A stretch of DNA of 64,000 nucleotides, taken from assembly GCF_055900595.2 (NCBI RefSeq), contig NZ_CM148325.1; one strand, given 5' to 3'. The notes under the pieces were generated by a model. It saw nothing but the letters and a program-made list of their open reading frames with translations. It had not been told where the DNA came from and ran no database searches. The translations under genes and the position numbers were made by a program. This document shows positions 33,443 through 53,536 of this stretch, one piece after another (within the stretch, counting starts at the first letter, position 1; every line of letters starts with the position of its first letter).

Positions 33443-35722
33443 ATGGATGACCAGTTAAAACAAAGTGCACTTGATTTCCATGAATTTCCAGTTCCAGGGA
33501 AAATCCAGGTTTCTCCAACCAAGCCTCTGGCAACGCAGCGCGATCTGGCGCTGGCCTACTCACCAGGCGTTGCCGCACCTTGTCTAGAAATCGAAAAAGA
33601 CCCGTTAAAAGCCTACAAATATACCGCTCGTGGTAACCTGGTGGCGGTGATCTCTAACGGTACGGCGGTGCTGGGGTTAGGCAACATTGGCGCGCTGGCA
33701 GGCAAACCGGTGATGGAAGGCAAGGGCGTTCTGTTTAAGAAATTCGCCGGGATTGATGTATTTGACATTGAAGTTGATGAACTTGACCCGGACAAATTTA
33801 TTGAAGTTGTCGCTGCGCTCGAACCGACCTTCGGCGGCATCAACCTCGAAGACATTAAAGCGCCAGAATGTTTCTATATTGAACAGAAACTGCGCGAGCG
33901 GATGAATATTCCAGTATTCCACGACGATCAGCACGGCACGGCAATTATCAGCACTGCAGCCATCCTCAACGGATTGCGCGTGGTGGAGAAAAACATCTCC
34001 GACGTGCGGATGGTGGTTTCCGGCGCGGGTGCAGCAGCAATTGCCTGTATGAACCTGCTGGTGGCGCTGGGGCTGCAAAAACATAACATCGTGGTTTGTG
34101 ATTCAAAAGGCGTTATCTATCAGGGCCGTGAGCCAAATATGGCGGAAACCAAAGCCGCATATGCGGTGGTAGATGACGGCAAACGTACCCTCGATGATGT
34201 AATTGAAGGCGCGGATATTTTCCTGGGCTGTTCCGGCCCGAAAGTGCTGACCCAGGAAATGGTTAAGAAAATGGCTCGTGCGCCGATGATCCTGGCGCTT
34301 GCGAACCCGGAACCAGAAATTCTGCCGCCGCTGGCGAAAGAAGTGCGTCCGGATGCCATCATCTGTACCGGCCGTTCCGACTACCCGAACCAGGTTAATA
34401 ACGTGCTTTGCTTCCCATTCATCTTCCGTGGCGCGTTGGACGTTGGTGCAACAGCCATCAACGAGGAAATGAAACTGGCGGCGGTACGCGCGATTGCAGA
34501 ACTGGCCCATGCGGAACAGAGCGAAGTCGTTGCTTCGGCGTATGGCGATCAAGATCTGAGCTTCGGCCCGGAATACATCATTCCAAAACCGTTTGATCCG
34601 CGTTTGATCGTTAAGATCGCTCCTGCGGTCGCTAAAGCGGCGATGGAGTCGGGCGTGGCGACGCGTCCGATTGCTGATTTCGACGTCTACATCGACAAGC
34701 TGACTGAGTTCGTTTACAAAACCAACCTGTTTATGAAGCCGATTTTCTCCCAGGCCCGCAAAGCGCCGAAGCGCGTTGTTTTACCGGAAGGGGAAGAGGC
34801 ACGCGTTCTGCATGCTACTCAGGAACTGGTGACGCTGGGACTGGCGAAACCGATCCTTATCGGTCGTCCGAACGTGATCGAAATGCGCATTCAAAAACTG
34901 GGCTTGCAGATCAAAGCGGGCGTTGATTTTGAGATCGTCAATAACGAATCCGATCCGCGTTTTAAAGAATACTGGACCGAATACTTCCAGATCATGAAGC
35001 GCCGTGGTGTAACTCAGGAGCAGGCACAGCGGGCACTGATCAGTAACCCGACAGTGATCGGCGCGATCATGGTTCAGCGTGGCGAAGCCGATGCAATGAT
35101 TTGCGGTACGGTGGGCGATTATCATGAACACTTCAGCGTGGTGAAAAATGTCTTTGGTTATCGCGATGGCGTTCACACCGCAGGCGCAATGAACGCGCTG
35201 CTATTGCCGAGTGGTAACACTTTTATTGCCGATACCTACGTCAATGACGAGCCAGACGCAGAAGAGTTGGCGGAGATCACCTTGATGGCGGCAGAAACTG
35301 TTCGTCGTTTTGGTATTGAGCCGCGTGTGGCTCTGTTGTCACACTCCAACTTTGGTTCTTCTGACTGCCCGTCGTCGAGCAAAATGCGTCAAGCGCTGGA
35401 ACTGGTCAGGGAGCGTGCGCCAGAACTGATGATTGATGGTGAAATGCACGGCGATGCAGCGCTGGTGGAAGCGATTCGCAGCGATCGTATGCCGGACAGC
35501 CCTTTGAAAGGTTCCGCCAATATTCTGGTGATGCCGAACATGGAAGCTGCCCGTATTAGTTACAACTTACTGCGCGTTTCCAGCTCGGAAGGTGTGACTG
35601 TCGGTCCGGTGCTGATGGGTGTGGCGAAACCGGTTCACGTGTTAACACCAATCGCATCCGTACGTCGTATCGTCAACATGGTGGCGCTGGCCGTGGTTGA
35701 AGCGCAAACCCAACCGCTGTAA
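33443..35722 (+). CDS. maeB: NADP-dependent malic enzyme with C-terminal phosphotransacetylase-like domain
   Basis: 759 aa [23 protein letters not shown]... Confidence 0.95.
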
Positions 35723-35739
35723 TTCATTCTTAACTCTCA

Positions 35740-35772
35740 CGCTTACCCTGAATATTCAGGGTAAGCGGTTTT
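35740..35772 (+). terminator. Rho-independent terminator after maeB
   Basis: Perfect hairpin CGCTTACCCTGAATATTCAGGGTAAGCG followed by GTTTT. Confidence 0.5.
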
Positions 35773-36013
35773 ACTGCAATATATTAGTAAAGCTTATTAC
35801 TAAGTTTTCGAGTAATAAAAAAGCAGCATATAAACTATCTCGATATTATTTTATTTATATTCATGCGTTGCATATGAAAGTTTATGCATCACAGTAAATA
35901 TCTCTCCATTCTTAGTGATCTACCTCACCTTTTAAACGCGCTTGCCGAATTTTGTTATTTACTCTGACGAAAAATTGTCACGATACACGCAAGTTTTTCA
36001 CAGGCGGCGACTC
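35773..36013 (+). promoter_or_regulatory. AT-rich control region upstream of eutS (main eut promoter region)
   Basis: About 240 bp of non-coding AT-rich DNA between the maeB terminator and eutS; expected site of the EutR-dependent promoter. No specific operator identified. Confidence 0.4.
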
Positions 36014-36349
36014 ATGGATAAAGAACGCATCATTCAGGAATTTGTGCCCGGCAAACAGGTCACACTGGCGCATCTCATCGCGCATCCCGGCGAGGAACTG
36101 GCGAAGAAAATCGGCGTTCCGGATGCGGGCGCAATCGGCATTATGACGCTAACACCCGGCGAAACGGCGATGATCGCCGGTGATTTAGCGCTGAAAGCCG
36201 CCGATGTGCATATCGGTTTTCTCGACCGTTTTAGCGGCGCGCTGGTGATTTATGGCTCGGTGGGTGCAGTAGAAGAAGCGTTATCACAAACCGTCAGTGG
36301 TTTAGGTCGCTTATTAAATTATACGCTGTGTGAAATGACCAAAAGTTAA
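36014..36349 (+). CDS. eutS: Ethanolamine microcompartment shell protein (BMC domain)
   Basis: 111 aa from [32 protein letters not shown]... Confidence 0.92.
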
Positions 36350-36361
36350 TACGAGGCATTC

Positions 36362-36841
36362 ATGAAACGAATTGCGTTTGTGGGTACCGTCGGGGCAGGA
36401 AAAACAACGTTATTTAATGCGTTGCAGGGGAATTATACCCTCGCCAGAAAAACACAGGCCGTGGAATTTAATGATAAGGGCGATATTGATACGCCGGGTG
36501 AATATTTTAGCCATCCCCGCTGGTATCACGCCTTAATTACCACGCTACAGGATGTGGACATGCTGATTTATGTCCACGGCGCGAATGACCCGGAAAGCCG
36601 ATTGCCTGCCGGGTTGCTGGATATTGGTGCCAGCAAACGGCAAATCGCCGTCATCAGTAAAACGGACATGCCGGATGCTGACGTCGCAGCAACGCGAAAG
36701 TTATTGCTTGAAACTGGTTTTGAAGAGCCGATTTTCGAGCTAAACAGCCACGACCCGCAAAGCGTGCAGCAACTGGTGAATTATCTGGCATCTCTCACCG
36801 AACAGGAGGAAGCAGGTGAAAAAACTCATCACAGCGAATGA
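36362..36841 (+). CDS. eutP: Ethanolamine utilization GTPase/acetate kinase-like protein (EutP/PduV family)
   Basis: 159 aa with Walker A GTVGAGKTT. Confidence 0.92.
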   Translation: MKRIAFVGTVGAGKTTLFNALQGNYTLARKTQAVEFNDKGDIDTPGEYFSHPRWYHALITTLQDVDMLIYVHGANDPESRLPAGLLDIGASKRQIAVISKTDMPDADVAATRKLLLETGFEEPIFELNSHDPQSVQQLVNYLASLTEQEEAGEKTHHSE

Positions 36842-37517
36842 TATTCGTGAAGCACATGCGCGCGGCGAACAGGCAATGTCTGTGGTTCTGCGCGCCAGCA
36901 TTATTACCCCGGAAGCCCGCGAAGTGGCGGACTTGTTGGGGTTTACCATCACCGAATGCACTGAATCGACGCCAGTAGCGGCATCTGTTCCCGTCAGCGT
37001 GCCTGCCGATAAAACTGAAAGCCAGCGTATCCGCGAAACCATCATCGCCCAGCTGCCGGAAGGCCAGTTTACCGAAAGCCTGGTCGCGCAGCTGATGGAA
37101 AAAGTGATGAAGGAAAAACAGTCGCTGGAGCAGGGGGCAATGCAGCCGAGTTTTAAATCGGTGACCGGCAAAGGCGGCATCAAAGTTATTGATGGCAGCA
37201 GCGTGAAGTTTGGTCGTTTCGATGGCGCGGAACCGCACTGCGTAGGCTTGACTGATCTCGTGACCGGAGACGACGGCAGCAGCATGGCCGCCGGTTTTAT
37301 GCAGTGGGAGAACGCCTTCTTCCCGTGGACCCTGAACTACGACGAAATCGACATGGTACTGGAAGGGGAGCTTCATGTTCGCCATGAAGGCGAAACCATG
37401 ATCGCTAAAGCAGGCGACGTGATGTTTATCCCGAAAGGTTCCAGCATCGAATTTGGTACGACATCCAGTGTGAAATTCCTGTATGTCGCCTGGCCGGCTA
37501 ACTGGCAATCCCTATGA
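36816..37517 (+). CDS. eutQ: Ethanolamine utilization cupin-domain protein
   Basis: 233 aa; start overlaps the eutP 3' end by 26 nt. Confidence 0.92.
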   Translation: MKKLITANDIREAHARGEQAMSVVLRASIITPEAREVADLLGFTITECTESTPVAASVPVSVPADKTESQRIRETIIAQLPEGQFTESLVAQLMEKVMKEKQSLEQGAMQPSFKSVTGKGGIKVIDGSSVKFGRFDGAEPHCVGLTDLVTGDDGSSMAAGFMQWENAFFPWTLNYDEIDMVLEGELHVRHEGETMIAKAGDVMFIPKGSSIEFGTTSSVKFLYVAWPANWQSL

Positions 37518-38317
37518 AAGATTTCATCACCGAAGCATGGCTAAGAGCGAACCATACGCTCAGCGAAGGCGCAGAGATCCATCTCCCTGCGGACAGTCGC
37601 CTGACGCCCTCTGCCCGGGAGTTACTGGAAAGCCGCCATCTGCGCATCAAGTTTATTGACGAGCAGGGCCGCCTGTTTGTTGACGATGAACAGCAGCAGC
37701 TACAGCCCGTTCACGTGCTGACCAGTAGTGATGAACATCCGCAGGCGTGCTGCGAACTGTGTCACCAGCCAGTGGCGAAAAAGCCGGACACGCTGACTCA
37801 CCTGTCGGCGGAAAAAATGGTCGCCAAAAGCGATCCGCGCCTGGGTTTTCGCGCTGTTCTCGACAGCACCATTGCGCTGGTAGTGTGGCTGCAAATTGAG
37901 CTGACAGAACCGTGGCAGCCGTGGCTGGCGGATATCCGTTCGCGTCTTGGCAACATTATGCGTGCCGATGTGTTGGGCGAACCGATGGGCTGCCAGGCGA
38001 TTGTCGGGTTTTCTGACGAAGATCTGCATCGACTTTCTCACCAGCCACTGCGTTATCTCGACCACGATCATCTGGTGCCGGAAGCCAGCCACGGACGCGA
38101 TGCGGCGTTGCTGAATCTGCTACGCACCAAAGTGCGGGAAACCGAAACCGTCGCGGCGCAGGTGTTTATTACCCGTAGTTTTGAAGTATTACGCCCGGAC
38201 ATCTTGCAGGCGCTGAACCGCCTTTCCAGCACGGTTTACGTGATGATGATTTTGAGCGTAACGAAGCAGCCGCTAACGGTGAAGCAGATCCAACAACGAC
38301 TGGGGGAAACGCAATGA
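37514..38317 (+). CDS. eutT: Ethanolamine utilization corrinoid adenosyltransferase
   Basis: 267 aa; 4-nt overlap with eutQ. Confidence 0.92.
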
Positions 38318-39330
38318 TTATTGAACGTTGTCGTGAACTGGCGTTGCGAGCGCCCGCCAGAGTGGTTTTTCCTGATGCGTTAGACCAACGCGTGCTGAAA
38401 GCTGCGCAATATTTACATCAACAAGGTCTGGCAACGCCCATTCTGGTCGCCAATCCGTTTGAACTTCGTCAGTTTGCGCTCAGTCACGGCGTGGCGATGG
38501 ACGGGCTACAGGTGATAGATCCGCATGGCAACCTCGCAATGCGGGAAGAATTTGCTCTCCGCTGGCTGGCCCGTGCGGGCGAAAAAACGCCGCCGGATGC
38601 GCTGGAAAAACTCACCGATCCGCTGATGTTCGCTGCCGCAATGGTCAGCGCCGGGACAGCGGATGTCTGTATCGCGGGCAATCTCTCTTCCACGGCAAAT
38701 GTGCTGCGTGCCGGATTACGCATTATTGGCTTACAGCCAGGCTGTAAAACGCTCTCCTCCATTTTCCTGATGCTGCCACAGTACAGTGGCCCCGCGTTGG
38801 GCTTTGCCGATTGCAGCGTAGTGCCACAGCCGACGGCGGCACAACTGGCGGATATCGCGCTTGCCAGCGCCGAAACCTGGCGAGCCATCACCGGAGAAGA
38901 GCCGCGCGTGGCGATGTTGTCGTTCTCCAGTAACGGCAGCGCCCGTCACCCCTGCGTTGCCAACGTGCAGCAAGCGACAGAAATCGTCCGTGAGCGCGCA
39001 CCGCAGCTGGTCGTCGATGGCGAGTTGCAGTTTGACGCCGCCTTTGTGCCAGAAGTGGCGGCGCAAAAAGCGCCAGCCAGCCCGCTACAGGGCAAAGCCA
39101 ATGTGATGGTTTTTCCGTCGCTGGAGGCGGGAAATATTGGCTACAAAATCGCACAACGACTTGGCGGATATCGTGCCGTCGGGCCATTGATACAAGGACT
39201 TGCCGCGCCGATGCACGATCTCTCTCGTGGTTGTAGCGTGCAGGAAATTATCGAGCTGGCGCTGGTGGCAGCTGTGCCGCGTCAGACAGAAGTGAACCGC
39301 GAAAGCAGTTTACAAACACTGGTTGAATGA
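38314..39330 (+). CDS. eutD: Phosphotransacetylase of the eut operon
   Basis: 338-aa Pta-family protein; 4-nt overlap with eutT. Confidence 0.93.
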
Positions 39331-39368
39331 ACGGTCCCGTTCTGGACCCTGATAAAGAGGAAAGCACA

Positions 39369-39662
39369 ATGGAAGCATTAGGAATGATCGAAACCCGGGG
39401 CCTGGTTGCACTGATTGAGGCTTCTGATGCGATGGTGAAAGCTGCGCGCGTCAAACTGGTTGGTGTTAAGCAGATTGGTGGCGGCCTGTGTACTGCCATG
39501 GTTCGCGGTGATGTTGCAGCCTGTAAAGCCGCGACCGATGCCGGTGCCGCAGCGGCACAGCGTATCGGTGAACTGGTATCCGTACATGTTATTCCGCGTC
39601 CGCACGGCGATCTGGAAGAGGTCTTCCCGATCGGCCTGAAAGGCGATAGCAGCAACCTGTAA
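39369..39662 (+). CDS. eutM: Ethanolamine microcompartment major shell protein (BMC-H)
   Basis: 97 aa from [32 protein letters not shown]...; ORF 39327.. trimmed. Confidence 0.93.
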
Positions 39663-39767
39663 TCACCCTGTGTGACGTCGATCCGGGCGTCACGCTCTCT
39701 CCGTTTTCTTTTACCTTCCGCGGAGGGTAAGGAGAGCTTTTACCTGAAATACGCCACGGAGGCGGGT

Positions 39768-40055
39768 ATGAAACTGGCAGTCGTCACAGGACAAATTGTT
39801 TGTACCGTACGCCATCACGGACTGGCGCATGACAAATTGCTGATGGTGGAAATGATTGATCCACAAGGTAATCCTGATGGGCAATGTGCTGTCGCCATCG
39901 ACAATATTGGCGCGGGAACCGGGGAGTGGGTGTTGCTGGTGAGTGGCAGTTCCGCCCGCCAGGCGCATAAAAGCGAAACGTCACCGGTCGATCTGTGCGT
40001 AATTGGCATTGTCGATGAGGTGGTCTCTGGCGGTCAGGTAATTTTCCACAAATAA
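39768..40055 (+). CDS. eutN: Ethanolamine microcompartment vertex protein (BMC-P, EutN/CcmL family)
   Basis: 95 aa from MKLAVVTGQIVCTVRHHGL...; ORF trimmed to the internal Met. Confidence 0.9.
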   Translation: MKLAVVTGQIVCTVRHHGLAHDKLLMVEMIDPQGNPDGQCAVAIDNIGAGTGEWVLLVSGSSARQAHKSETSPVDLCVIGIVDEVVSGGQVIFHK

Positions 40056-40066
40056 GGCAGAACATC

Positions 40067-41470
40067 ATGAATCAACAGGATATTGAACAGGTGGTGAAAG
40101 CGGTACTGCTGAAAATGCAAAGCAGTGACACGTCGCCCGCCGCCGTTCATGAGATGGGCGTTTTTGCTTCCCTGGATGACGCCGTTGCGGCGGCCAAAAT
40201 TGCCCAGCAAGGGTTAAAAAGCGTGGCAATGCGCCAGTTAGCCATTGCTGCTATTCGTGAAGCAGGCGAAAAACACGCCAGAGATTTAGCGGAACTTGCC
40301 GTCAGTGAAACGGGTATGGGCCGCGTAGAAGATAAATTTGCCAAAAACGTCGCTCAGGCACGCGGTACGCCAGGCGTTGAGTGCCTCTCTCCACAGGTGC
40401 TGACCGGTGACAACGGCCTGACTTTAATTGAAAACGCGCCCTGGGGCGTGGTGGCTTCGGTGACGCCTTCCACTAACCCGGCGGCAACCGTAATTAATAA
40501 CGCCATCAGCCTGATTGCCGCGGGCAACAGCGTCATTTTTGCCCCGCATCCGGCGGCGAAAAAAGTCTCTCAACGGGCTATTACGTTGCTCAACCAGGCG
40601 ATTGTTGCCGCAGGCGGGCCGGAAAACTTACTGGTTACTGTGGCAAATCCAGATATCGAAACCGCGCAACGCTTATTCAAGTTTCCGGGCATCGGTCTGT
40701 TGGTGGTGACCGGCGGCGAAGCGGTGGTGGAAGCGGCGCGCAAACACACCAATAAACGTCTGATTGCCGCAGGTGCTGGCAACCCGCCGGTGGTGGTGGA
40801 TGAAACCGCCGACCTCGCCCGTGCCGCTCAGTCTATCGTCAAAGGCGCTTCTTTCGATAACAACATCATTTGTGCCGATGAAAAGGTACTGATTGTTGTT
40901 GATAGCGTAGCCGATGAACTGATGCGTCTGATGGAAGGCCAGCACGCGGTGAAACTGACCGCAGAACAGGCGCAGCGACTGCAACCGGTGTTGCTGAAAA
41001 ATATCGACGAGCGCGGAAAAGGCACCGTCAGCCGTGACTGGGTGGGGCGCGATGCGGCGAAAATCGCGGCGGCAATCGGCCTGAACGTGCCGCAAGAAAC
41101 GCGCTTGCTGTTTGTAGAAACCACCGAAGAACATCCGTTTGCCGTAACCGAATTGATGATGCCGGTGCTGCCGGTCGTGCGCGTCGCCAACGTGGAGGAT
41201 GCCATTGCGCTGGCGGTGAAACTGGAAGGCGGTTGCCACCACACGGCGGCAATGCACTCGCGCAATATCGAGAACATGAACCAAATGGCGAACGCCATTG
41301 ATACCAGTATTTTCGTTAAGAACGGACCGTGCATTGCCGGGCTGGGGCTGGGCGGGGAAGGCTGGACCACGATGACCATCACTACGCCAACCGGTGAAGG
41401 GGTAACCAGCGCGCGTACGTTTGTCCGTCTGCGTCGCTGTGTATTAGTCGATGCGTTTCGCATTGTTTAA
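40067..41470 (+). CDS. eutE: CoA-acylating acetaldehyde dehydrogenase
   Basis: 467-aa aldehyde dehydrogenase family protein. Confidence 0.94.
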   Translation: MNQQDIEQVVKAVLLKMQSSDTSPAAVHEMGVFASLDDAVAAAKIAQQGLKSVAMRQLAIAAIREAGEKHARDLAELAVSETGMGRVEDKFAKNVAQARGTPGVECLSPQVLTGDNGLTLIENAPWGVVASVTPSTNPAATVINNAISLIAAGNSVIFAPHPAAKKVSQRAITLLNQAIVAAGGPENLLVTVANPDIETAQRLFKFPGIGLLVVTGGEAVVEAARKHTNKRLIAAGAGNPPVVVDETADLARAAQSIVKGASFDNNIICADEKVLIVVDSVADELMRLMEGQHAVKLTAEQAQRLQPVLLKNIDERGKGTVSRDWVGRDAAKIAAAIGLNVPQETRLLFVETTEEHPFAVTELMMPVLPVVRVANVEDAIALAVKLEGGCHHTAAMHSRNIENMNQMANAIDTSIFVKNGPCIAGLGLGGEGWTTMTITTPTGEGVTSARTFVRLRRCVLVDAFRIV

Positions 41471-41480
41471 GGAGTAACCG

Positions 41481-42317
41481 ATGGCGCACGACGAACAATG
41501 GCTTACCCCGCGGCTGCAAACGGCGGCAACGCTGTGTAACCAGACGCCCGCCGCGTCGGAATCTCCGCTGTGGCTGGGGGTGGATCTGGGCACCTGCGAT
41601 GTGGTGTCGATGGTTGTCGACGGCGACGGTCAGCCGGTGGCGGTATGCCTCGACTGGGCCGATGTGGTCCGCGACGGCATCGTCTGGGATTTCTTCGGTG
41701 CTGTCACCATTGTTCGTCGCCATCTCGATACCCTTGAGCAGCAATTTGGTCGCCGTTTTAGCCATGCGGCGACCTCATTTCCTCCTGGTACGGACCCGCG
41801 TATTTCCATCAACGTGCTGGAGTCTGCCGGGCTGGAAGTGAGCCATGTGCTGGATGAGCCAACCGCAGTCGCGGATCTACTGCAACTGGATAACGCAGGC
41901 GTAGTGGATATTGGCGGCGGCACTACCGGAATTGCCATCGTGAAAAAGGGCAAGGTGACTTATTCAGCGGATGAAGCGACCGGCGGACATCACATTTCTC
42001 TGACTCTCGCCGGAAATCGCCGTATTTCGCTGGGAGAGGCAGAGCAGTACAAGCGCGGTCACGGTGACGAGATTTGGCCTGCGGTGAAGCCGGTGTACGA
42101 AAAAATGGCGGACATTGTTGCCCGACATATTGAAGGGCAGGGCATTACTGATTTATGGCTGGCGGGCGGCTCCTGTATGCAACCGGGCGTGGCGGAACTG
42201 TTTTGCAAACAATTCCCGGCGTTACAGGTGCATCTACCGCAGCACAGTTTGTTTATGACCCCGCTGGCGATCGCCAGTAGCGGGCGAGAGAAAGCGGAGG
42301 GGATCTATGCAAAATGA
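41481..42317 (+). CDS. eutJ: Ethanolamine utilization chaperone-like protein (actin/Hsp70 fold)
   Basis: 278 aa with DxG and GGGT ATPase motifs. Confidence 0.92.
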   Translation: MAHDEQWLTPRLQTAATLCNQTPAASESPLWLGVDLGTCDVVSMVVDGDGQPVAVCLDWADVVRDGIVWDFFGAVTIVRRHLDTLEQQFGRRFSHAATSFPPGTDPRISINVLESAGLEVSHVLDEPTAVADLLQLDNAGVVDIGGGTTGIAIVKKGKVTYSADEATGGHHISLTLAGNRRISLGEAEQYKRGHGDEIWPAVKPVYEKMADIVARHIEGQGITDLWLAGGSCMQPGVAELFCKQFPALQVHLPQHSLFMTPLAIASSGREKAEGIYAK

Positions 42318-43494
42318 ATTGCAGACCGCGCTCTTTCAGGCGTTCGATACCCTGAATCTGCAACGGGTAAAAACATTTAGCGTTCCACCGGTGACGCTTT
42401 GCGGCCCGGGCGCGGTGAGCAGTTGCGGACAGCAAGCACAAACGCGTGGGCTGAAACATCTGTTCGTGATGGCAGACAGCTTTTTGCATCAGGCGGGGAT
42501 GACCGCCGGGCTGACGCGCAGTCTGGCCGTTAAAGGCATCGCCATGACGCTCTGGCCATGTCCGGTGGGCGAACCGTGCATCACTGACGTGTGTGCCGCC
42601 GTGGCGCAACTGCGCGAATCAGGCTGTGACGGGGTGATCGCGTTTGGCGGTGGCTCGGTGCTGGATGCGGCAAAAGCCGTTGCGTTGCTGGTGACGAACC
42701 CCGACAGCACGCTGGCAGAAATGTCAGAAACCAGCGTTCTGCAACCGCGTCTGCCGCTGATTGCCATTCCAACTACCGCCGGAACCGGCTCTGAAACCAC
42801 CAATGTAACGGTGATTATCGACGCGGTGAGCGGGCGCAAGCAGGTGTTAGCACATGCCTCGTTGATGCCGGATGTGGCGATTCTCGATGCCGCGCTGACC
42901 GAAGGTGTGCCGTCGCATGTCACGGCAATGACCGGTATCGACGCGTTAACTCATGCCATTGAAGCGTACAGCGCGCTGAACGCTACACCGTTTACCGACA
43001 GTCTGGCGATTGGTGCCATTGCGATGATTGGCAAATCACTGCCGAAAGCAGTGGGCTACGGTCACGACCTTGCCGCGCGCGAGAGTATGTTGCTGGCTTC
43101 ATGCATGGCGGGAATGGCATTTTCCAGTGCCGGACTTGGGTTATGTCACGCGATGGCGCATCAGCCGGGGGCGGCGCTGCATATTCCGCACGGACTGGCG
43201 AACGCCATGCTGCTGCCCACGGTGATGGAGTTTAACCGGATGGTCTGTCGCGAACGCTTTAGTCAGATTGGTCGGGCGCTGCGAACTAAAAAATCCGACG
43301 ATCGTGATGCTATTAACGCGGTAAGTGAGCTGATTGCGGAAGTCGGGATTGGTAAACGACTGGGCGATGTTGGTGCGGCATCTGCGCATTACGGCGCATG
43401 GGCGCAGGCCGCGCTGGAAGATATTTGTCTGCGCAGCAACCCGCGTACCGCCAGCCTGGAGCAGATTGTCGGCTTGTACGCAGCGGCGCAATAA
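42307..43494 (+). CDS. eutG: Iron-containing alcohol dehydrogenase of the eut operon
   Basis: 395-aa Fe-ADH family protein; overlaps the eutJ end by 11 nt. Confidence 0.93.
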   Translation: MQNELQTALFQAFDTLNLQRVKTFSVPPVTLCGPGAVSSCGQQAQTRGLKHLFVMADSFLHQAGMTAGLTRSLAVKGIAMTLWPCPVGEPCITDVCAAVAQLRESGCDGVIAFGGGSVLDAAKAVALLVTNPDSTLAEMSETSVLQPRLPLIAIPTTAGTGSETTNVTVIIDAVSGRKQVLAHASLMPDVAILDAALTEGVPSHVTAMTGIDALTHAIEAYSALNATPFTDSLAIGAIAMIGKSLPKAVGYGHDLAARESMLLASCMAGMAFSSAGLGLCHAMAHQPGAALHIPHGLANAMLLPTVMEFNRMVCRERFSQIGRALRTKKSDDRDAINAVSELIAEVGIGKRLGDVGAASAHYGAWAQAALEDICLRSNPRTASLEQIVGLYAAAQ

Positions 43495-43496
43495 AT

Positions 43497-43580
<84 letters not shown>

Positions 43581-43610
43581 ATAAATAACAACTAACAGGG
43601 AGTAAAGGCG

Positions 43611-44837
43611 ATGGGAATTAACGAAATCATCATGTACATCATGATGTTCTTTATGCTGATAGCTGCCGTGGACAGGATCCTGTCGCAGTTCGGCGGTTCT
43701 GCTCGTTTCCTCGGTAAGTTCGGTAAAAGTATCGAAGGATCCGGCGGCCAGTTCGAAGAAGGCTTTATGGCAATGGGCGCACTGGGCCTGGCGATGGTCG
43801 GTATGACCGCACTGGCACCAGTTCTGGCCCACGTACTTGGGCCGGTGATTATCCCGGTTTACGAAATGCTCGGTGCTAACCCATCGATGTTCGCCGGAAC
43901 ACTGCTGGCGTGCGACATGGGCGGCTTCTTCCTCGCGAAAGAGCTGGCGGGCGGCGATGTGGCAGCGTGGCTATACTCTGGGTTAATTCTCGGATCGATG
44001 ATGGGGCCAACGATTGTGTTTTCCATTCCGGTGGCGCTCGGCATTATCGAACCTTCTGACCGTCGTTATCTGGCGCTCGGCGTGCTGGCGGGCATTGTGA
44101 CCATTCCAATTGGCTGTATCGCTGGAGGTCTGGTAGCTATGTATTCCGGTGTGCAGATCAACGGGCAGCCGGTGGAATTCACCTTTGCGCTTATCCTGAT
44201 GAATATGATCCCGGTACTTATCGTCGCGGTACTGGTGGCGCTGGGGCTGAAATTCATCCCGGAAAAAATGATCAACGGCTTCCAGATCTTCGCCAAGTTC
44301 CTCGTTGCATTGATCACCCTCGGTCTTGCTGCCGCGGTAGTGAAATTCCTCCTTGGCTGGGAACTGATCCCCGGTCTTGATCCGATCTTTATGGCCCCTG
44401 GCGATAAACCCGGTGAAGTGATGCGCGCCATTGAAGTTATCGGTTCTATCTCCTGCGTGCTGTTAGGGGCGTATCCGATGGTGCTGCTGCTGACCCGCTG
44501 GTTTGAAAAACCGCTGATGAGCGTCGGTAAAGTGCTGAATATGAACAACATCGCGGCAGCCGGCATGGTGGCAACGCTTGCCAACAACATCCCGATGTTT
44601 GGCATGATGAAGCAGATGGATACCCGCGGCAAAGTCATCAACTGTGCCTTCGCCGTTTCCGCTGCTTTCGCCCTGGGTGACCACTTAGGCTTCGCCGCTG
44701 CCAACATGAACGCCATGATCTTCCCGATGATTGTCGGCAAGTTGATCGGCGGCGTAACGGCGATTGGCGTGGCGATGATGCTGGTGCCAAAAGAAGACGC
44801 GACCGCGGCTAAAACCGAAGCGGAGGCACAATCGTGA
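43611..44837 (+). CDS. eutH: Ethanolamine permease / transporter
   Basis: 408-aa polytopic membrane protein. Confidence 0.93.
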   Translation: MGINEIIMYIMMFFMLIAAVDRILSQFGGSARFLGKFGKSIEGSGGQFEEGFMAMGALGLAMVGMTALAPVLAHVLGPVIIPVYEMLGANPSMFAGTLLACDMGGFFLAKELAGGDVAAWLYSGLILGSMMGPTIVFSIPVALGIIEPSDRRYLALGVLAGIVTIPIGCIAGGLVAMYSGVQINGQPVEFTFALILMNMIPVLIVAVLVALGLKFIPEKMINGFQIFAKFLVALITLGLAAAVVKFLLGWELIPGLDPIFMAPGDKPGEVMRAIEVIGSISCVLLGAYPMVLLLTRWFEKPLMSVGKVLNMNNIAAAGMVATLANNIPMFGMMKQMDTRGKVINCAFAVSAAFALGDHLGFAAANMNAMIFPMIVGKLIGGVTAIGVAMMLVPKEDATAAKTEAEAQS

Positions 44838-46237
44838 ACACTCGCCAGCTACTGAGCGTCGGTATCGATATCGGCACTACCACCACCCAGGTGATCTTCT
44901 CCCACCTGGAGCTGGTTAACCGTGCGGCGGTGTCGCAGGTGCCGCGCTACGAATTCATCAAACGCGAAATTAGCTGGCAAAGCCCGGTGTTCTTTACCCC
45001 TGTCGATAAACTGGGCGGTTTAAAAGAAGCGGAACTGAAAACCTTAATCCTCGAGCAATATCAGGCTGCGGGCATTGCGCCGGAAAGCGTTGATTCTGGT
45101 GCCATCATCATCACCGGTGAAAGCGCGAAAACCCGCAATGCTCGCCCGGCGGTGATGACGCTCTCCCAGTCGCTTGGCGATTTTGTCGTCGCCAGCGCCG
45201 GGCCGCATCTCGAATCCGTGATCGCCGGTCACGGTGCCGGGGCGCAAACCCTTTCTGAACAACGGCTGTGTCGGGTACTGAATATCGATATTGGCGGTGG
45301 CACCGCGAACTACGCTTTGTTCGATGCCGGAAAAATCAGCGGCACCGCTTGCCTCAACGTCGGCGGTCGCCTGCTGGAAACCGACAGCCAGGGGCGCGTG
45401 GTTTACGCTCATAAACCGGGGCAGATGATAGTGGATGAGTGCTTCGGTGCAGGCACTGACGCCCGTTCGCTGACTGGCGCGCAGCTGGTGCAGGTTACCC
45501 GGCGGATGGCGGAACTGATTGTCGAAGTGATTGACGGAACGCTCTCGCCGCTCGCGCAGGCATTGATGCAAACCGGTTTGCTGCCCGCAGGTGTTACGCC
45601 AGAAATCATTACGCTTTCTGGCGGCGTGGGCGAATGTTATCGCCACCAGCCCGCTGACCCGTTCTGTTTTGCCGATATTGGCCCGCTTCTGGCAACGGCG
45701 CTGCATGACCATCCGCGCCTGCGTGAGATGAACGTGCAGTTTCCGGCGCAAACCGTACGCGCCACGGTGATTGGCGCGGGCGCACATACCCTTTCGCTCT
45801 CTGGCAGCACAATCTGGCTGGAGGGGGTACAACTGCCGCTGCGCAATTTGCCGGTGGCGATCCCAATTGATGAAACGGATCTGGTGAGTGCCTGGCAACA
45901 AGCGCTAATTCAGCTGGATCTTTGCCCCAAAACTGACGCGTACGTGCTGGCGCTTCCCGCCTCGCTGCCTGTGCGTTACGCCGCGGTACTGACGGTCATC
46001 AACGCGCTGGTCGATTTCGTCGCGCGTTTTCCGAATCCGCATCCCCTGCTGGTGGTGGCCGGGCAGGATTTTGGTAAAGCTCTGGGCATGTTGTTGCGCC
46101 CACAGCTACAACAACTCCCGTTGGCAGTCATTGACGAAGTGATTGTCCGCGCGGGGGACTATATCGACATTGGTACGCCTCTTTTTGGCGGATCGGTTGT
46201 GCCGGTGACGGTGAAATCACTCGCATTTCCTTCCTGA
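44834..46237 (+). CDS. eutA: Ethanolamine ammonia-lyase reactivating factor
   Basis: 467 aa; 4-nt overlap with eutH. Confidence 0.93.
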   Translation: MNTRQLLSVGIDIGTTTTQVIFSHLELVNRAAVSQVPRYEFIKREISWQSPVFFTPVDKLGGLKEAELKTLILEQYQAAGIAPESVDSGAIIITGESAKTRNARPAVMTLSQSLGDFVVASAGPHLESVIAGHGAGAQTLSEQRLCRVLNIDIGGGTANYALFDAGKISGTACLNVGGRLLETDSQGRVVYAHKPGQMIVDECFGAGTDARSLTGAQLVQVTRRMAELIVEVIDGTLSPLAQALMQTGLLPAGVTPEIITLSGGVGECYRHQPADPFCFADIGPLLATALHDHPRLREMNVQFPAQTVRATVIGAGAHTLSLSGSTIWLEGVQLPLRNLPVAIPIDETDLVSAWQQALIQLDLCPKTDAYVLALPASLPVRYAAVLTVINALVDFVARFPNPHPLLVVAGQDFGKALGMLLRPQLQQLPLAVIDEVIVRAGDYIDIGTPLFGGSVVPVTVKSLAFPS

Positions 46238-46248
46238 GGGAACGACTT

Positions 46249-47610
46249 ATGAAACTAAAGACCACATTGTTCGGCAATGTATATCAGTTTAAGGATGTAA
46301 AAGAGGTGCTGGCTAAAGCCAACGAACTGCGTTCGGGGGATGTGCTGGCGGGCGTTGCAGCGGCAAGTTCACAGGAGCGCGTGGCGGCAAAGCAGGTGTT
46401 GTCGGAAATGACCGTAGCGGACATCCGCAATAATCCGGTGATTGCCTATGAAGATGACTGCGTGACGCGGCTGATTCAGGACGACGTTAACGAAACGGCC
46501 TACAACCAGATTAAAAACTGGAGCATCAGCGAACTGCGTGAGTATGTGCTGAGTGATGAAACCAGCGTGGACGACATTGCCTTTACCCGCAAAGGGCTGA
46601 CCTCGGAAGTGGTCGCGGCGGTAGCGAAGATTTGCTCCAACGCGGACCTGATCTACGGCGCGAAGAAAATGCCGATTATCAAAAAGGCCAATACTACCAT
46701 CGGTATTCCGGGCACCTTTAGCGCCCGTTTGCAGCCGAACGATACCCGTGACGACGTGCAGAGTATCGCCGCGCAAATCTACGAAGGGCTTTCCTTCGGG
46801 GTAGGCGATGCGGTGATCGGCGTTAACCCGGTGACTGACGACGTGGAAAACTTAAGCCGCGTGCTGGATACCATCTATGGCGTGATCGACAAATTCAACA
46901 TTCCGACCCAGGGCTGCGTGCTGGCGCACGTTACTACCCAGATTGAAGCGATCCGTCGCGGCGCGCCGGGCGGGCTGATTTTCCAGAGCATCTGCGGCAG
47001 CGAAAAAGGGCTGAAAGAATTTGGCGTGGAGCTGGCGATGCTCGATGAAGCACGCGCAGTGGGCGCAGAGTTTAACCGTATCGCCGGGGAAAACTGCCTC
47101 TACTTCGAAACCGGGCAAGGTTCTGCGCTATCGGCGGGCGCTAACTTCGGCGCAGATCAGGTAACGATGGAAGCGCGTAACTACGGGCTGGCACGTCATT
47201 ACGATCCGTTTATCGTCAACACCGTAGTGGGCTTTATTGGGCCAGAGTATCTCTACAACGACCGGCAGATTATCCGTGCGGGCTTAGAAGATCACTTTAT
47301 GGGCAAACTGAGCGGCATTTCTATGGGCTGTGACTGCTGCTACACCAACCACGCTGACGCTGACCAGAACCTCAACGAAAACCTGATGATCCTGCTCGCC
47401 ACCGCAGGCTGCAACTACATCATGGGGATGCCGCTGGGTGATGACATCATGCTCAACTACCAGACCACCGCATTCCACGATACCGCCACTGTGCGTCAGT
47501 TACTCAACCTGCGCCCGTCACCGGAGTTTGAACGCTGGCTGGAAAGCATGGGCATTATGGCAAACGGTCGCCTGACCAAACGGGCGGGCGATCCGTCACT
47601 GTTCTTCTGA
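46249..47610 (+). CDS. eutB: Ethanolamine ammonia-lyase large (heavy) subunit
   Basis: 453 aa MKLKTTLFGNVYQFKDVKEVLAKANELRSGD...; directly follows eutA after an 11-nt spacer. Confidence 0.95.
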   Translation: MKLKTTLFGNVYQFKDVKEVLAKANELRSGDVLAGVAAASSQERVAAKQVLSEMTVADIRNNPVIAYEDDCVTRLIQDDVNETAYNQIKNWSISELREYVLSDETSVDDIAFTRKGLTSEVVAAVAKICSNADLIYGAKKMPIIKKANTTIGIPGTFSARLQPNDTRDDVQSIAAQIYEGLSFGVGDAVIGVNPVTDDVENLSRVLDTIYGVIDKFNIPTQGCVLAHVTTQIEAIRRGAPGGLIFQSICGSEKGLKEFGVELAMLDEARAVGAEFNRIAGENCLYFETGQGSALSAGANFGADQVTMEARNYGLARHYDPFIVNTVVGFIGPEYLYNDRQIIRAGLEDHFMGKLSGISMGCDCCYTNHADADQNLNENLMILLATAGCNYIMGMPLGDDIMLNYQTTAFHDTATVRQLLNLRPSPEFERWLESMGIMANGRLTKRAGDPSLFF

Positions 47611-47630
47611 TGACGCGGAGATAACACATC

Positions 47631-48518
47631 ATGGATCAAAAACAGATTGAAGAAATTGTACGCAGCGTGATGGCGTCAATGGGACAAGCGGCCCCCGCGC
47701 CGTCAGAAGCAAAATGCGCCACTACCACCTGTGCAGCACCGATGACCTCGGAAAGCTGCGCGCTGGATTTAGGTTCCGCAGAAGCAAAAGCGTGGATTGG
47801 CGTTGAAAACCCACATCGCGCAGACGTATTAACTGAACTGCGCCGCAGCACCGTGGCTCGCGTCTGTACCGGTCGTGCCGGTCCGCGTCCGCGTACCCAG
47901 GCGTTGCTGCGTTTCCTGGCCGATCACTCTCGTTCGAAAGACACCGTACTGAAAGAAGTGCCGGAAGAGTGGGTGAAAGCGCAGGGCTTGCTGGAGGTCC
48001 GCTCTGAAATTAGCGACAAAAATCTCTATCTGACTCGCCCGGATATGGGCCGCCGCTTGTGTGCAGAGGCTGTTGAAGCGCTGAAAGCGCAGTGTGTTGC
48101 CAATCCGGACGTACAGGTCGTTATTTCTGATGGCCTGTCAACTGATGCGATCACCGTGAACTACGAAGAGATCCTGCCACCGCTGATGGCGGGCCTGAAA
48201 CAGGCCGGGTTGAAAGTCGGCACACCGTTCTTTGTGCGTTACGGTCGCGTGAAGATTGAAGATCAGATTGGCGAACTTCTTGGCGCGAAAGTGGTGATCC
48301 TGCTGGTGGGGGAACGCCCAGGATTAGGGCAGTCAGAAAGCCTCTCCTGCTACGCCGTTTACTCGCCGCGTATGGCAACCACCGTTGAGGCCGATCGCAC
48401 CTGTATCTCTAACATTCACCAGGGCGGCACGCCGCCGGTTGAAGCCGCAGCCGTCATTGTGGATTTGGCGAAACGTATGCTGGAGCAGAAAGCATCCGGC
48501 ATCAACATGACCCGATAA
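47631..48518 (+). CDS. eutC: Ethanolamine ammonia-lyase small (light) subunit
   Basis: 295 aa. Confidence 0.94.
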
Positions 48519-48527
48519 GGAGGCATC

Positions 48528-49187
48528 ATGCCAGCTTTAGATTTGATTCGACCGTCGGTAACCGCCATGCGGGTGATTGCCTCTGTCAACGCCGAATTTG
48601 CGCGTGAACTGAAATTGCCGCCGCATATTCGTAGCCTCGGGCTGATTTCTGCTGATTCCGATGACGTCACCTACATTGCGGCTGACGAAGCGACCAAGCA
48701 GGCGATGGTTGAAGTCGTGTATGGTCGCTCGCTGTATGCGGGAGCTGCACACGGGCCGTCACCGACTGCCGGTGAGGTGCTGATTATGCTTGGTGGGCCA
48801 AACCCGGCGGAAGTGCGTGCTGGTCTGGATGCGATGGTTGCGCATATTGAAAATGGCGCTGCTTTCCAGTGGGCTAATGATGCAGAAAACACAGCCTTCC
48901 TGGCGCATGTCGTTTCGCGTACCGGCTCTTATCTCTCATCAACCGCCGGGATCACGCTTGGCGATCCGCTGGCGTATCTGGTGGCACCGCCGCTGGAAGC
49001 GACCTACGGCATTGATGCAGCGTTGAAATCTGCCGACGTGCAGCTGGTGACCTATGTCCCGCCACCGTCTGAAACCAACTACTCGGCAGCATTTTTAACC
49101 GGTAGCCAGGCCGCGTGTAAAGCAGCCTGTAACGCCTTTACCGATGCAGTGCTGGAAATCGCGCGTAATCCAATCCAGCGTGCGTAA
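48528..49187 (+). CDS. eutL: Ethanolamine microcompartment shell protein (tandem BMC domains)
   Basis: 219 aa. Confidence 0.93.
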
Positions 49188-49199
49188 CGGAGGTTGCCG

Positions 49200-49700
49200 A
49201 TGATCAATGCACTGGGATTGCTGGAAGTGGACGGCATGGTCGCCGCGATAGATGCAGCTGATGCCATGCTCAAAGCAGCTAACGTTCGTCTGCTCAGTCA
49301 CGAAGTGCTTGACCCTGGTCGCCTAACGCTGGTGGTGGAAGGCGATCTGGCGGCGTGTCGTGCGGCGCTGGACGCAGGTTGTGCTGCCGCGATGCGTACC
49401 GGGCGTGTCATCAGCCGTAAGGAGATCGGTCGGCCAGACGATGACACCCAGTGGCTGGTTACTGGCTTTAACCGCCAGCCGAAGCAACCCGTAAAGGAAC
49501 CCGACGCGCCAGTTATCGTCGCGGAATCTGCTGACGAGTTGTTGGCGCTGTTAACATCAGTACGTCAGGGAATGACGGCAGGAGAAGTGGCTGCCCACTT
49601 TGGCTGGCCGCTGGAAAAAGCCAGAAATGCGCTCGAACAGCTCTTTTCTGCCGGGACGTTACGTAAACGCAGTAGTCGTTATCGTCTCAAGCCCCATTAA
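49200..49700 (+). CDS. eutK: Ethanolamine microcompartment shell protein with C-terminal nucleic-acid-binding-like domain
   Basis: 166 aa from MINALGLLEVDGMVAAIDAADAMLKAANV... Confidence 0.9.
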   Translation: MINALGLLEVDGMVAAIDAADAMLKAANVRLLSHEVLDPGRLTLVVEGDLAACRAALDAGCAAAMRTGRVISRKEIGRPDDDTQWLVTGFNRQPKQPVKEPDAPVIVAESADELLALLTSVRQGMTAGEVAAHFGWPLEKARNALEQLFSAGTLRKRSSRYRLKPH

Positions 49701-49745
49701 CCTGTCGGAGGTGCCGGGTGTCCTACAACACCCGGCATTAACATC

Positions 49746-50798
49746 ATGAAAAAGACCCGTACAGCTAATTTGCACCATCTTTATCATGAACCCTTACCCG
49801 AAAACCTGAAGCTAACGCCGAAGGTCGAAGTGGATAATGTTCATCAACGGCAAACAACGGATGTCTATGAACATGCTTTGACGATTACCGCCTGGCAGCA
49901 GATTTACGATCAGCTGCATCCGGGCAAATTTCATGGTGAATTTACGGAAATTCTGCTCGATGATATTCAGGTTTTCCGTGAATACACGGGGCTGGCGCTG
50001 CGTCAGTCGTGCCTGGTCTGGCCGAATTCGTTCTGGTTTGGCATTCCGGCGACGCGCGGTGAGCAGGGATTTATCGGTTCGCAATGTCTGGGAAGCGCAG
50101 AAATAGCGACGCGCCCTGGTGGAACCGAGTTTGAATTAAGTACGCCGGACGATTACACGATCCTTGGCGTGGTGCTTTCTGAAGATGTCATCACCCGGCA
50201 GGCTAACTTTTTGCATAACCCGGAAAGGGTGCTGCATATGTTACGTAACCAGTCGGCGCTGGAAGTGAAAGAGCAGCATAAAGCCGCGCTGTGGGGCTTT
50301 GTCCAACAGGCTCTGGCGACATTTTGCGAGAACCCGGAAAATCTCCATCAGCCTGCAGTGCGAAAAGTGCTGGGGGATAATTTGCTAATGGCGATGGGGG
50401 CGATGCTGGAAGAAGCGCAGCCAATGGTGACGGTGGAAAGCATCAGTCATCAGAGTTACCGTCGGTTGCTTTCCCGCGCCCGTGAATATGTGCTGGAAAA
50501 CATGTCCGAACCGGTGACGGTGCTGGACTTGTGTAATCAACTGCACGTCAGTCGCCGCACCTTGCAAAACGCATTTCACGCTATTTTGGGCATTGGCCCG
50601 AATGCGTGGCTGAAACGCATTCGCCTGAACGCCGTGCGCCGTGAACTGATTAGCCCGTGGTCGCAAAGTATGACGGTAAAAGACGCCGCCATGCAGTGGG
50701 GATTCTGGCATCTTGGGCAGTTTGCCACGGATTATCAGCAATTGTTTGCAGAAAAGCCTTCACTGACGCTGCATCAGCGGATGCAGGAACTGGAGTGA
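49746..50798 (+). CDS. eutR: AraC-family transcriptional activator of the eut operon
   Basis: 350 aa with a C-terminal AraC-type HTH. Confidence 0.93.
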
Positions 50799-50874
50799 GG
50801 GTGAGGGCCGGATGAGGATGGTGTTTGATCCGGTCCATAGTGAAGTTACAAATTACGTTGAATTGCTATGTATT

Positions 50875-51192
50875 TTATTGCCCAACGGGATAGGCGATAA
50901 ACAAACCGACAATTGTCAAAATACACGCCAGCAGGAATACCAACATACAATTTACGCGCTTTCGCGAAATTTTAAATAAATAGCAAAATAGTGTTGTTAC
51001 CACGATCACTACCGGGATAGTCATAAAATTAATAACGATGAGTGCTATCAATCCAAAACTTGCTCCTCCACCGTGGGGAATAAAAATGTGTTCTTCAAAA
51101 TAAACTTCTATAGCAAATGCCAGCACACATCCCAGAAAACTCATATCCAGATGAGGGTGCCATTTACTTTCTTTATGTGATGTGTCTGACAT
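50875..51192 (-). CDS. Hypothetical small membrane protein (105 aa, about 3 predicted TM helices)
   Basis: ATG preceded by a GGGAG SD; hydrophobic segments FLGCVLAFAIEVYF, FGLIALIVINFMTIPVVIVVTTLFCYLF, CMLVFLLACILTIVGLFIAYPV; 40 nt downstream of and co-oriented with the 420-aa gene. Confidence 0.6.
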   Translation of the reverse strand: MSDTSHKESKWHPHLDMSFLGCVLAFAIEVYFEEHIFIPHGGGASFGLIALIVINFMTIPVVIVVTTLFCYLFKISRKRVNCMLVFLLACILTIVGLFIAYPVGQ

Positions 51193-51232
51193 TCTTAAAT
51201 GCTCCCGTGAGCAAACTGGCGCAAAATAATTT

Positions 51233-52495
51233 CTAAGATTGCTGATAAGACGTCGCTGTTGTCCGGCACTCCGGGCAGATAAACGCGTAAATTATCCCTT
51301 CGCCGTATTGTTCAATATCGGCATAATCCAGTTGCGCAAGAAACATCATTGTGTGGGAACATTGCGGACAGAGAGGATATTCCGCGTCCTGAATCCAGGT
51401 TGGATGCCCGCCAAGTTGCGAGAAAGAGACAGGTAAAAATGGGTCTGCGGCAAATAACGGTGACCTAAGGTTTCCCTGTCTCATGCTGTTTACAGGGAGT
51501 CGACGCCATTCCGATACATCATCCGGCAGCCAGGCAGGCGGGATATTTTTTGCAGACAAATGAGCGTTACCCTTTGAGTCCATGTAGCCGAAAATGGTGC
51601 TGTAGGCGGTGCAACATTCGCAAGTCACGACGCGAAAACTGCCGTTATCGCTAAGACCCGTTGCCTTCAGGTCAACGTCGAAAAGATTTGTTAGTGGCAA
51701 TGCGCAATTTGGACAGGTATCGTTGCGTTCATCAACAACACGCAAAGCTTCGCAAGACCCGGTGCTTTTCATCTCCAGATGAAAACATTGAGGAAAATAG
51801 AGATTACGCCTTTGATCTTCAGCGGTTAACTCCCAACCGGCCTCATGCGCATATTCTTCAGGCTCGATGTAAAGGGAGCTGCGCCACGGCGGTGGGCTAT
51901 TGCGCCAGTGGGCAAAACGTTCAACGACAACGTCATCCCCAATCCATGCCAGACATTGCAGAATACAATTTCTGTTTTCTGCATCATCCTCAACCCGTTC
52001 TAACAGCCTGTCGCGTACATCTGTGGGGGCGCGGTGGAAAGGCATATAAGAATCATTGTCCAAATCATCGTAAGAGATCCATTCTCTGAAATAGGCATTC
52101 AGATTCGCCTGGGTAAATGCCGCCAGACAAAGGCAAATCTCCTGAGCGAGCTTATATTCACCAGATGCAAAGCGTTCTGTGGCGTAATCAGCCATCAGCT
52201 GCGCTTGATCGGTGGTCAGTTGTTGATACAGGGCATCTGTGGGAACGGGGCAGGGAGTCCAGTCGATTAACGCATCGAATTTCCGCGGTTGGTGAATTAA
52301 TTTCAGCATGACAACCGGATCGCTTAACCCTGCAAACGCATTCACGATCTTTTTGTTTTTCTTGATATATTCGTCGTGCTCACGTTGCTGTTGGGCCTGC
52401 TCGCAGGGCATGCAGTATCCGTTAGTACGCGCTGCGGTTTCCGGAAGAATGGTTGATATACAAGCGGGGCTTTTACAGGGAATACGGTGAGTCAT
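51233..52495 (-). CDS. Hypothetical cysteine-rich protein (420 aa) with zinc-ribbon motifs and a DUF1963/YwqG-like C-terminal region
   Basis: ATG with an AAGGAG SD 8 nt upstream; N-terminal C-x4-C...C-x2-C (CKSPAC...CMPC), internal CPNC...CECC, and C-terminal GGHPTWIQDAEYPLCPQCSHTMMFLAQLDYADIEQYGEGIIYAFICPEC. Family assignment is from memory, not a search. Confidence 0.7.
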   Translation of the reverse strand: MTHRIPCKSPACISTILPETAARTNGYCMPCEQAQQQREHDEYIKKNKKIVNAFAGLSDPVVMLKLIHQPRKFDALIDWTPCPVPTDALYQQLTTDQAQLMADYATERFASGEYKLAQEICLCLAAFTQANLNAYFREWISYDDLDNDSYMPFHRAPTDVRDRLLERVEDDAENRNCILQCLAWIGDDVVVERFAHWRNSPPPWRSSLYIEPEEYAHEAGWELTAEDQRRNLYFPQCFHLEMKSTGSCEALRVVDERNDTCPNCALPLTNLFDVDLKATGLSDNGSFRVVTCECCTAYSTIFGYMDSKGNAHLSAKNIPPAWLPDDVSEWRRLPVNSMRQGNLRSPLFAADPFLPVSFSQLGGHPTWIQDAEYPLCPQCSHTMMFLAQLDYADIEQYGEGIIYAFICPECRTTATSYQQS

Positions 52496-52633
52496 AGAGG
52501 CGCTCCTTGCCTGAGGATATTAAGTCGAAAGAGATTATTATTAGATATTAGGGTGTCACTATGGCACACAAATTAAAACAGCATTAATTTTATGCCACCA
52601 ACCGAGGGTTATTTTTCTTTTATTTTCATGATA

Positions 52634-53536
<903 letters not shown>

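Follow-up and report, generated by a model that had tools for sequence, protein, structure and literature searches.

The eutA-eutB junction of a non-K-12 Escherichia coli is very probably an unoccupied attachment site for IntZ-encoding integrative islands

The stretch of E. coli DNA analysed here (64 kb, henceforth referred to as the window) contains a complete eut operon in which 17 full-length genes lie on one strand in the order S-P-Q-T-D-M-N-E-J-G-H-A-B-C-L-K-R. The features of the locus are as follows:

36014..50798, + strand: complete eut operon, 17 genes, uninterrupted (full-length NCBIfam matches)
44834..46237, + strand: eutA, ethanolamine ammonia-lyase reactivating factor, 467 aa (NCBIfam NF007991 equivalog, 1070.9 bits, residues 1-467 of 467)
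46230..46237, + strand: 8-bp attachment core CTTCCTGA, present as a single copy, very probably an unoccupied attB (comparison of island ends)
46238..46248, + strand: eutA-eutB spacer GGGAACGACTT, 11 nt (direct reading)
46249..47610, + strand: eutB, ethanolamine ammonia-lyase large subunit, 453 aa (NCBIfam NF011649, 664 bits, residues 4-452)
47631..50798, + strand: the distal genes eutC, eutL, eutK and eutR (NCBIfam equivalog matches)
50875-51192, - strand: hypothetical ORF, 105 aa, in an insert between eutR and hemF
51233-52495, - strand: 420-aa protein with a weak C-terminal DUF1963 match (E = 2.7e-5), in the same insert

A first-pass annotation of this DNA had described the 17 eut genes as a single unbroken unit, and their contiguous order and full-length NCBIfam matches bear this out: the family models for eutS, P, Q, T, D, M, N, E, J, G, H, C, L, K and R are each covered over their full length. 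The intergenic gaps do not exceed 116 nt, the largest being the REP/BIME element between eutG and eutH, and the eut layout agrees with the RefSeq annotation of NZ_CP098223.1, a genome that is 99.97% identical. Salmonella enterica LT2 and E. coli Nissle 1917 (EUT1 locus) have the same set and order of 17 eut genes, likewise uninterrupted. Eut microcompartments and ethanolamine use have been demonstrated in other strains with this uninterrupted architecture (PMC7617246, PMC11334477). The Eut proteins of Salmonella have been described as sharing >73% identity with their counterparts in E. coli K-12 W3110, a comparison made with W3110 and not with the window (PMC11334477). As a side observation, the eutG-eutH spacer (window 43495-43610) holds a single BIME-like unit with two inverted REP-like palindromes and measures 116 nt, compared to 216 nt in K-12, where the ~100-nt unit sits twice in tandem.

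Whether the eutA-eutB junction is intact is a question of gene order, to which a test against chance does not apply. Direct reading of window 46100-46400 places the TGA stop codon of eutA (preceded by TCC) at 46235-46237 and the ATG of eutB at 46249, so that the annotated end of eutA, the 11-nt spacer and the annotated start of eutB were correct, in agreement with the list of open reading frames. The GAGG at 46236-46239, which consists of the GA of the stop codon and the first bases of the spacer, is the likely Shine-Dalgarno sequence of eutB and lies 9 nt upstream of its ATG.

In a K-12 MG1655 derivative (comparison locus L001), the two genes are separated by the 6.8-kb cryptic prophage element CPZ-55, just as the first-pass annotation had stated. 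The order in the annotation of L001 is eutA, a 41-codon hypothetical ORF, yffS, yffR, yffQ, yffP, yffO, yffN, yffM, yffL, intZ and then eutB, with yffS to yffL and intZ on the strand opposite to the eut genes and intZ adjoining the eutB-side junction (attR). The domains of K-12 IntZ (Arm-DNA-bind_3, Phage_int_M and Phage_integrase) identify it as a P4-type tyrosine integrase with an arm-binding domain. The two ends of the element and the empty junction, which is the same in the window and in the K-12 derivative DH5alpha (L002), read as follows:

K-12 attL: ...CGCATTTC CTTCCTGA | ATGCGGTATTC...
K-12 attR: ...ATCATCGATT CTTCCTGA | GGGAACGACTT ATG...
window and DH5alpha: ...CGCATTTC CTTCCTGA GGGAACGACTT ATG...

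The only exact sequence common to both ends of CPZ-55 is CTTCCTGA, and identity breaks on either side of it. Window 46190-46275 corresponds base for base to the left flank of the K-12 attL (48 nt with the core) followed by the right flank of the K-12 attR (38 nt), with one copy of the core, and also matches the empty site of DH5alpha exactly; the window therefore holds the unoccupied site, as had been proposed from the sequence. The locus in MG1655 and BW25113 thus resembles that in the window in these core flanks, in gene order and in the 11-nt spacer, and differs in its two copies of CTTCCTGA with 6.8 kb between them, where the window has a single copy and lacks an island. The alignment to the K-12 flanks that the first-pass annotation had suggested as a check also relocates the site: that annotation had placed it in the spacer (46238-46248), but the core is the 8-bp CTTCCTGA at 46230-46237, which forms the final 8 nt of eutA, stop codon included, and the spacer stays with eutB at attR. 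An 8-bp duplication TCAGGAAG, the reverse complement of CTTCCTGA, was published in 2019 as lying beside the eutA stop codon, together with the conserved intergenic sequence (PMC6379469).

The identity of these 86 nt to K-12, in an operon that is only 96.2% identical overall, and the overlap of the likely eutB Shine-Dalgarno GAGG with the eutA stop codon would also fit a tight junction that is kept for a regulatory role of its own (translational coupling or an RNA element), independently of attachment. However, there is nothing unusual in an operon about an 11-nt spacer with a Shine-Dalgarno sequence, and no Rfam family reached the gathering threshold in 35000-53000. We give such a role virtually no chance of being what the junction is kept for, and it would in any case be compatible with an attB and add to it rather than replace it.

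The core alone is found five times in the window when both strands are counted, and the specificity of the site must therefore depend on flanking sequence. A core longer than 8 bp was considered and rejected, since exact identity extends over only 8 bp in K-12 and in both diverged islands described below and the eutA frame runs into a stop codon in the P arm. The P arm of K-12 (L001 8980-9019) does resemble the 3' end of eutA (window 46207-46237) past the core, sharing the blocks GTGAAA and TCACTC, and in the diverged islands this likeness amounts to 15/21 ungapped positions; attP and attB may once have been identical over a greater length, of which this is what remains, or the likeness may be due to chance.

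Neither CPZ-55 DNA (blastn) nor an IntZ homologue (tblastn) was found anywhere in the 64-kb window. Among deposited phages, the reconstructed CPZ-55 attP (270 nt, sensitive blastn) had no match and no close IntZ orthologue was found, the best being the integrase of Erwinia phage phiEt88 (43% identical), so that no known free phage can be named as a user of the site. Within CPZ-55 itself, YffO (L001 5183-5599) matches the small-terminase PHROG phrog_1482 (E = 5.5e-13); IntZ and YffO were the only proteins with a PHROGs match, the seven remaining non-integrase proteins having none. The presence of an integrase and a small terminase in an element of 6.8 kb hints at something that resembles a phage satellite more than a decayed prophage.

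To place the junction in the context of the species, its empty and occupied forms were counted in complete E. coli genomes. The intact junction is present in 4964/5426 genomes (~91%), in which a 1011-nt query centred on the junction was covered in one piece, and an attL-type junction is present in 441 (8.1%), all of which were found by a junction-specific query (201 nt across the K-12 attL, coverage of at least 80%). The latter value is in line with the published occupancy of 8% among 638 genomes (PMC6379469). In E. coli the intact junction is the default, and its position, the 8-bp duplication, the prevalence and the phenotype have already been published. Among all records matching the attL query, 228 had a best match at only 80-95% identity; we infer that these records, equivalent to roughly half of the 441, represent diverged relatives of CPZ-55.

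Diverged islands of this type occupy the eutA/eutB site in strains rl0044 (L003, 10.3 kb) and TUM10008 (L004, 10.6 kb). Their arms are ~90% identical to those of CPZ-55, and both have the same boundaries as CPZ-55 and the 8-bp core CTTCCTGA at either end. In each of the three islands (K-12, rl0044 and TUM10008) an intZ-family tyrosine integrase gene adjoins attR, and the spacer GGGAACGACTT is unchanged at attR of all three occupied genomes, as it is in DH5alpha. The two islands differ from CPZ-55 in size and cargo, none of which is present in the window. The island of rl0044 (L003 16101-26403) carries IS1, murI (glutamate racemase), a gadC-like antiporter and a truncated PLP-dependent decarboxylase, and that of TUM10008 a 726-aa protein matching tape-measure PHROGs and an HNH endonuclease. 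The 'novel prophage' of UPEC U71 is an island of this diverged kind at eutA/eutB (PMC6652756). We also observed that the cargo of the rl0044 island resembles an acid-resistance module.

The integration of CPZ-55 has been termed 'transposon-like', with an 8-bp duplication (PMC6379469), and the insertion could be regarded as a kind of transposition that duplicated an 8-bp target site, for which the junction is simply one possible target; the shortness of the core and its five copies in the window would be compatible with this. Yet the boundaries and the 8 bp are exactly alike in three islands whose arms have diverged and whose cargo differs, each island has an intZ-family tyrosine integrase gene beside attR, and the K-12 integrase has an arm-binding domain. 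Moreover, no transposase is listed in the annotation of CPZ-55, the element excises (PMC3105296), and the occupied genomes, all 441 of them, were found with a junction-specific query. We consider transposition extremely improbable, and the 'transposon-like' label was dropped in favour of site-specific recombination on the grounds of the boundaries, the integrase, the lack of an annotated transposase and excision.

If the islands insert by site-specific recombination, an empty site could in principle be one that an island has left. Excision by a tyrosine recombinase is scarless, so that a restored attB and one that was never occupied look alike in sequence; the K-12 lineage holds both empty and occupied states with identical flanks, and excision of CPZ-55 has been measured at a low frequency of <1 per 100,000 cells (PMC3105296). 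We nonetheless regard it as unlikely that an island was once present in the window lineage and was precisely excised, since the site is empty in ~91% of complete E. coli genomes, which makes a site that was never occupied the simpler explanation, and the window contains no leftover island DNA. Some of the same observations would also be compatible with IntZ islands acting as reversible switches of ethanolamine catabolism ('active lysogeny'), in which integration turns the operon off and precise excision turns it on: both states exist in the K-12 lineage with scarless junctions, the placement of the core leaves both flanking genes intact, and CPZ-55 excision is measurable (PMC3105296). Were this so, the empty site would represent a phase-variable locus in its ON state rather than just an attB that was never used, but we assign this possibility a very low probability.

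The lack of CPZ-55 had also been taken as a sign that the strain is not K-12. The conclusion is correct, because the operon is 96.2% identical to that of K-12 (DH5alpha, over 6258 ungapped bases) and a 1.8-kb insert (window 50799-52633) lies between eutR and hemF, two genes that are 5 nt apart in K-12. The reasoning does not hold, as the K-12 derivatives DH5alpha, C600 and AG100 have no CPZ-55 at eutA/eutB, and the EutA and EutB protein accessions of DH5alpha and AG100 are those of MG1655. The Takara cloning strain HST04, which we take to be K-12-derived, likewise has an intact eutA-eutB junction. Published accounts add XL1-Blue, which is without CPZ-55 (PMC11148124), and an eut+ laboratory stock of W3110, in which the operon is uninterrupted and has no insertion (PMC11334477). 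CPZ-55 is also missing from K-12 derivatives and its presence therefore does not define K-12; with several common K-12 laboratory strains lacking the element, its absence is unsuitable as a marker of non-K-12 strains. DH5alpha, C600, AG100, XL1-Blue, the W3110 stock and the engineered BW25113 eut+ strain share the empty site with the window strain and carry K-12 alleles, whereas the window represents a diverged natural lineage.

Window 25740-64000 is 99.97% identical to the dog isolate E. coli Z0117EC0005 from South Korea (NZ_CP098223.1). Only 24/5424 matching records have at least 99% identity at the junction region, and the lineage of the window is comparatively rare among sequenced complete genomes. 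The eutR-hemF insert is found in only 28/5426 complete E. coli genomes, EPEC E2348/69 (~92% identity) among them, and is a far more distinctive marker of the lineage than the absence of CPZ-55. A separate observation concerns AG100 (L006, NZ_LN832404.1), in which 90 bp that take in the eutA 3' end together with the core and spacer are duplicated in tandem (~723-902). The annotation lists this as a 24-aa EutA fragment, and the arrangement also occurs in two further records of identical length; it could be a genuine rearrangement of the att site or an assembly artefact.

Overall, we consider it very probable that window 46230-46248 is an unoccupied attB for small IntZ-encoding integrative islands, of which CPZ-55 is the best known, within an intact operon, and nothing in the sequence speaks against this. 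On integration, IntZ would recombine the 8-bp core CTTCCTGA at the end of eutA with the identical core in the attP of the element. This would duplicate the core and leave eutB with its ribosome-binding site; eutA would keep its stop codon because the core is duplicated. In an occupied site, 6.8-10.6 kb of oppositely oriented DNA would part eutBCLK(R) from the promoter upstream of eutS, which depends on EutR, ethanolamine and B12, and this separation would abolish ethanolamine use, a polar effect taken from the literature. With the site empty, all 17 genes would be transcribed together.

Experimental work in K-12 is consistent with such a polar effect, in that occupation of the site separates the distal eut genes from the main promoter (PMC11334477, PMC7617246). 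In BW25113, eutS and eutR respond to ethanolamine, eutB is not induced and no microcompartments are formed (PMC7617246). With ethanolamine as the nitrogen source, BW25113, in which the prophage is present, behaves like an eut deletion, and scarless removal of the prophage restores growth; the W3110 eut+ stock and the engineered BW25113 eut+ strain are Eut+ by experiment (PMC11334477).

Since the site is empty in the window, transcription of the operon as a single unit and B12-dependent use of ethanolamine are predicted. Unlike MG1655 and BW25113, the strain would express ethanolamine ammonia-lyase and the Eut microcompartment, and, like most E. coli, it should be able to use ethanolamine in the presence of B12, a prediction drawn from full-length gene matches, which do not reveal inactivating point mutations that cause no truncation. 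Ethanolamine use is relevant to fitness in the gut and the urinary tract, yet E. coli has this ability by default, and the importance of the intact junction beyond strain typing is small. The useful outcome is corrective, and concerns the coordinates of the core and the inference drawn about K-12.

Finally, both of the natural isolates examined that carry a diverged island have a second lesion in the eut operon: eutH is frameshifted in rl0044 (L003 13473-14700), and eutG is split by IS421 in TUM10008 (L004 10621-13157). The operon may decay once it has been split by an island, as these two genomes suggest.
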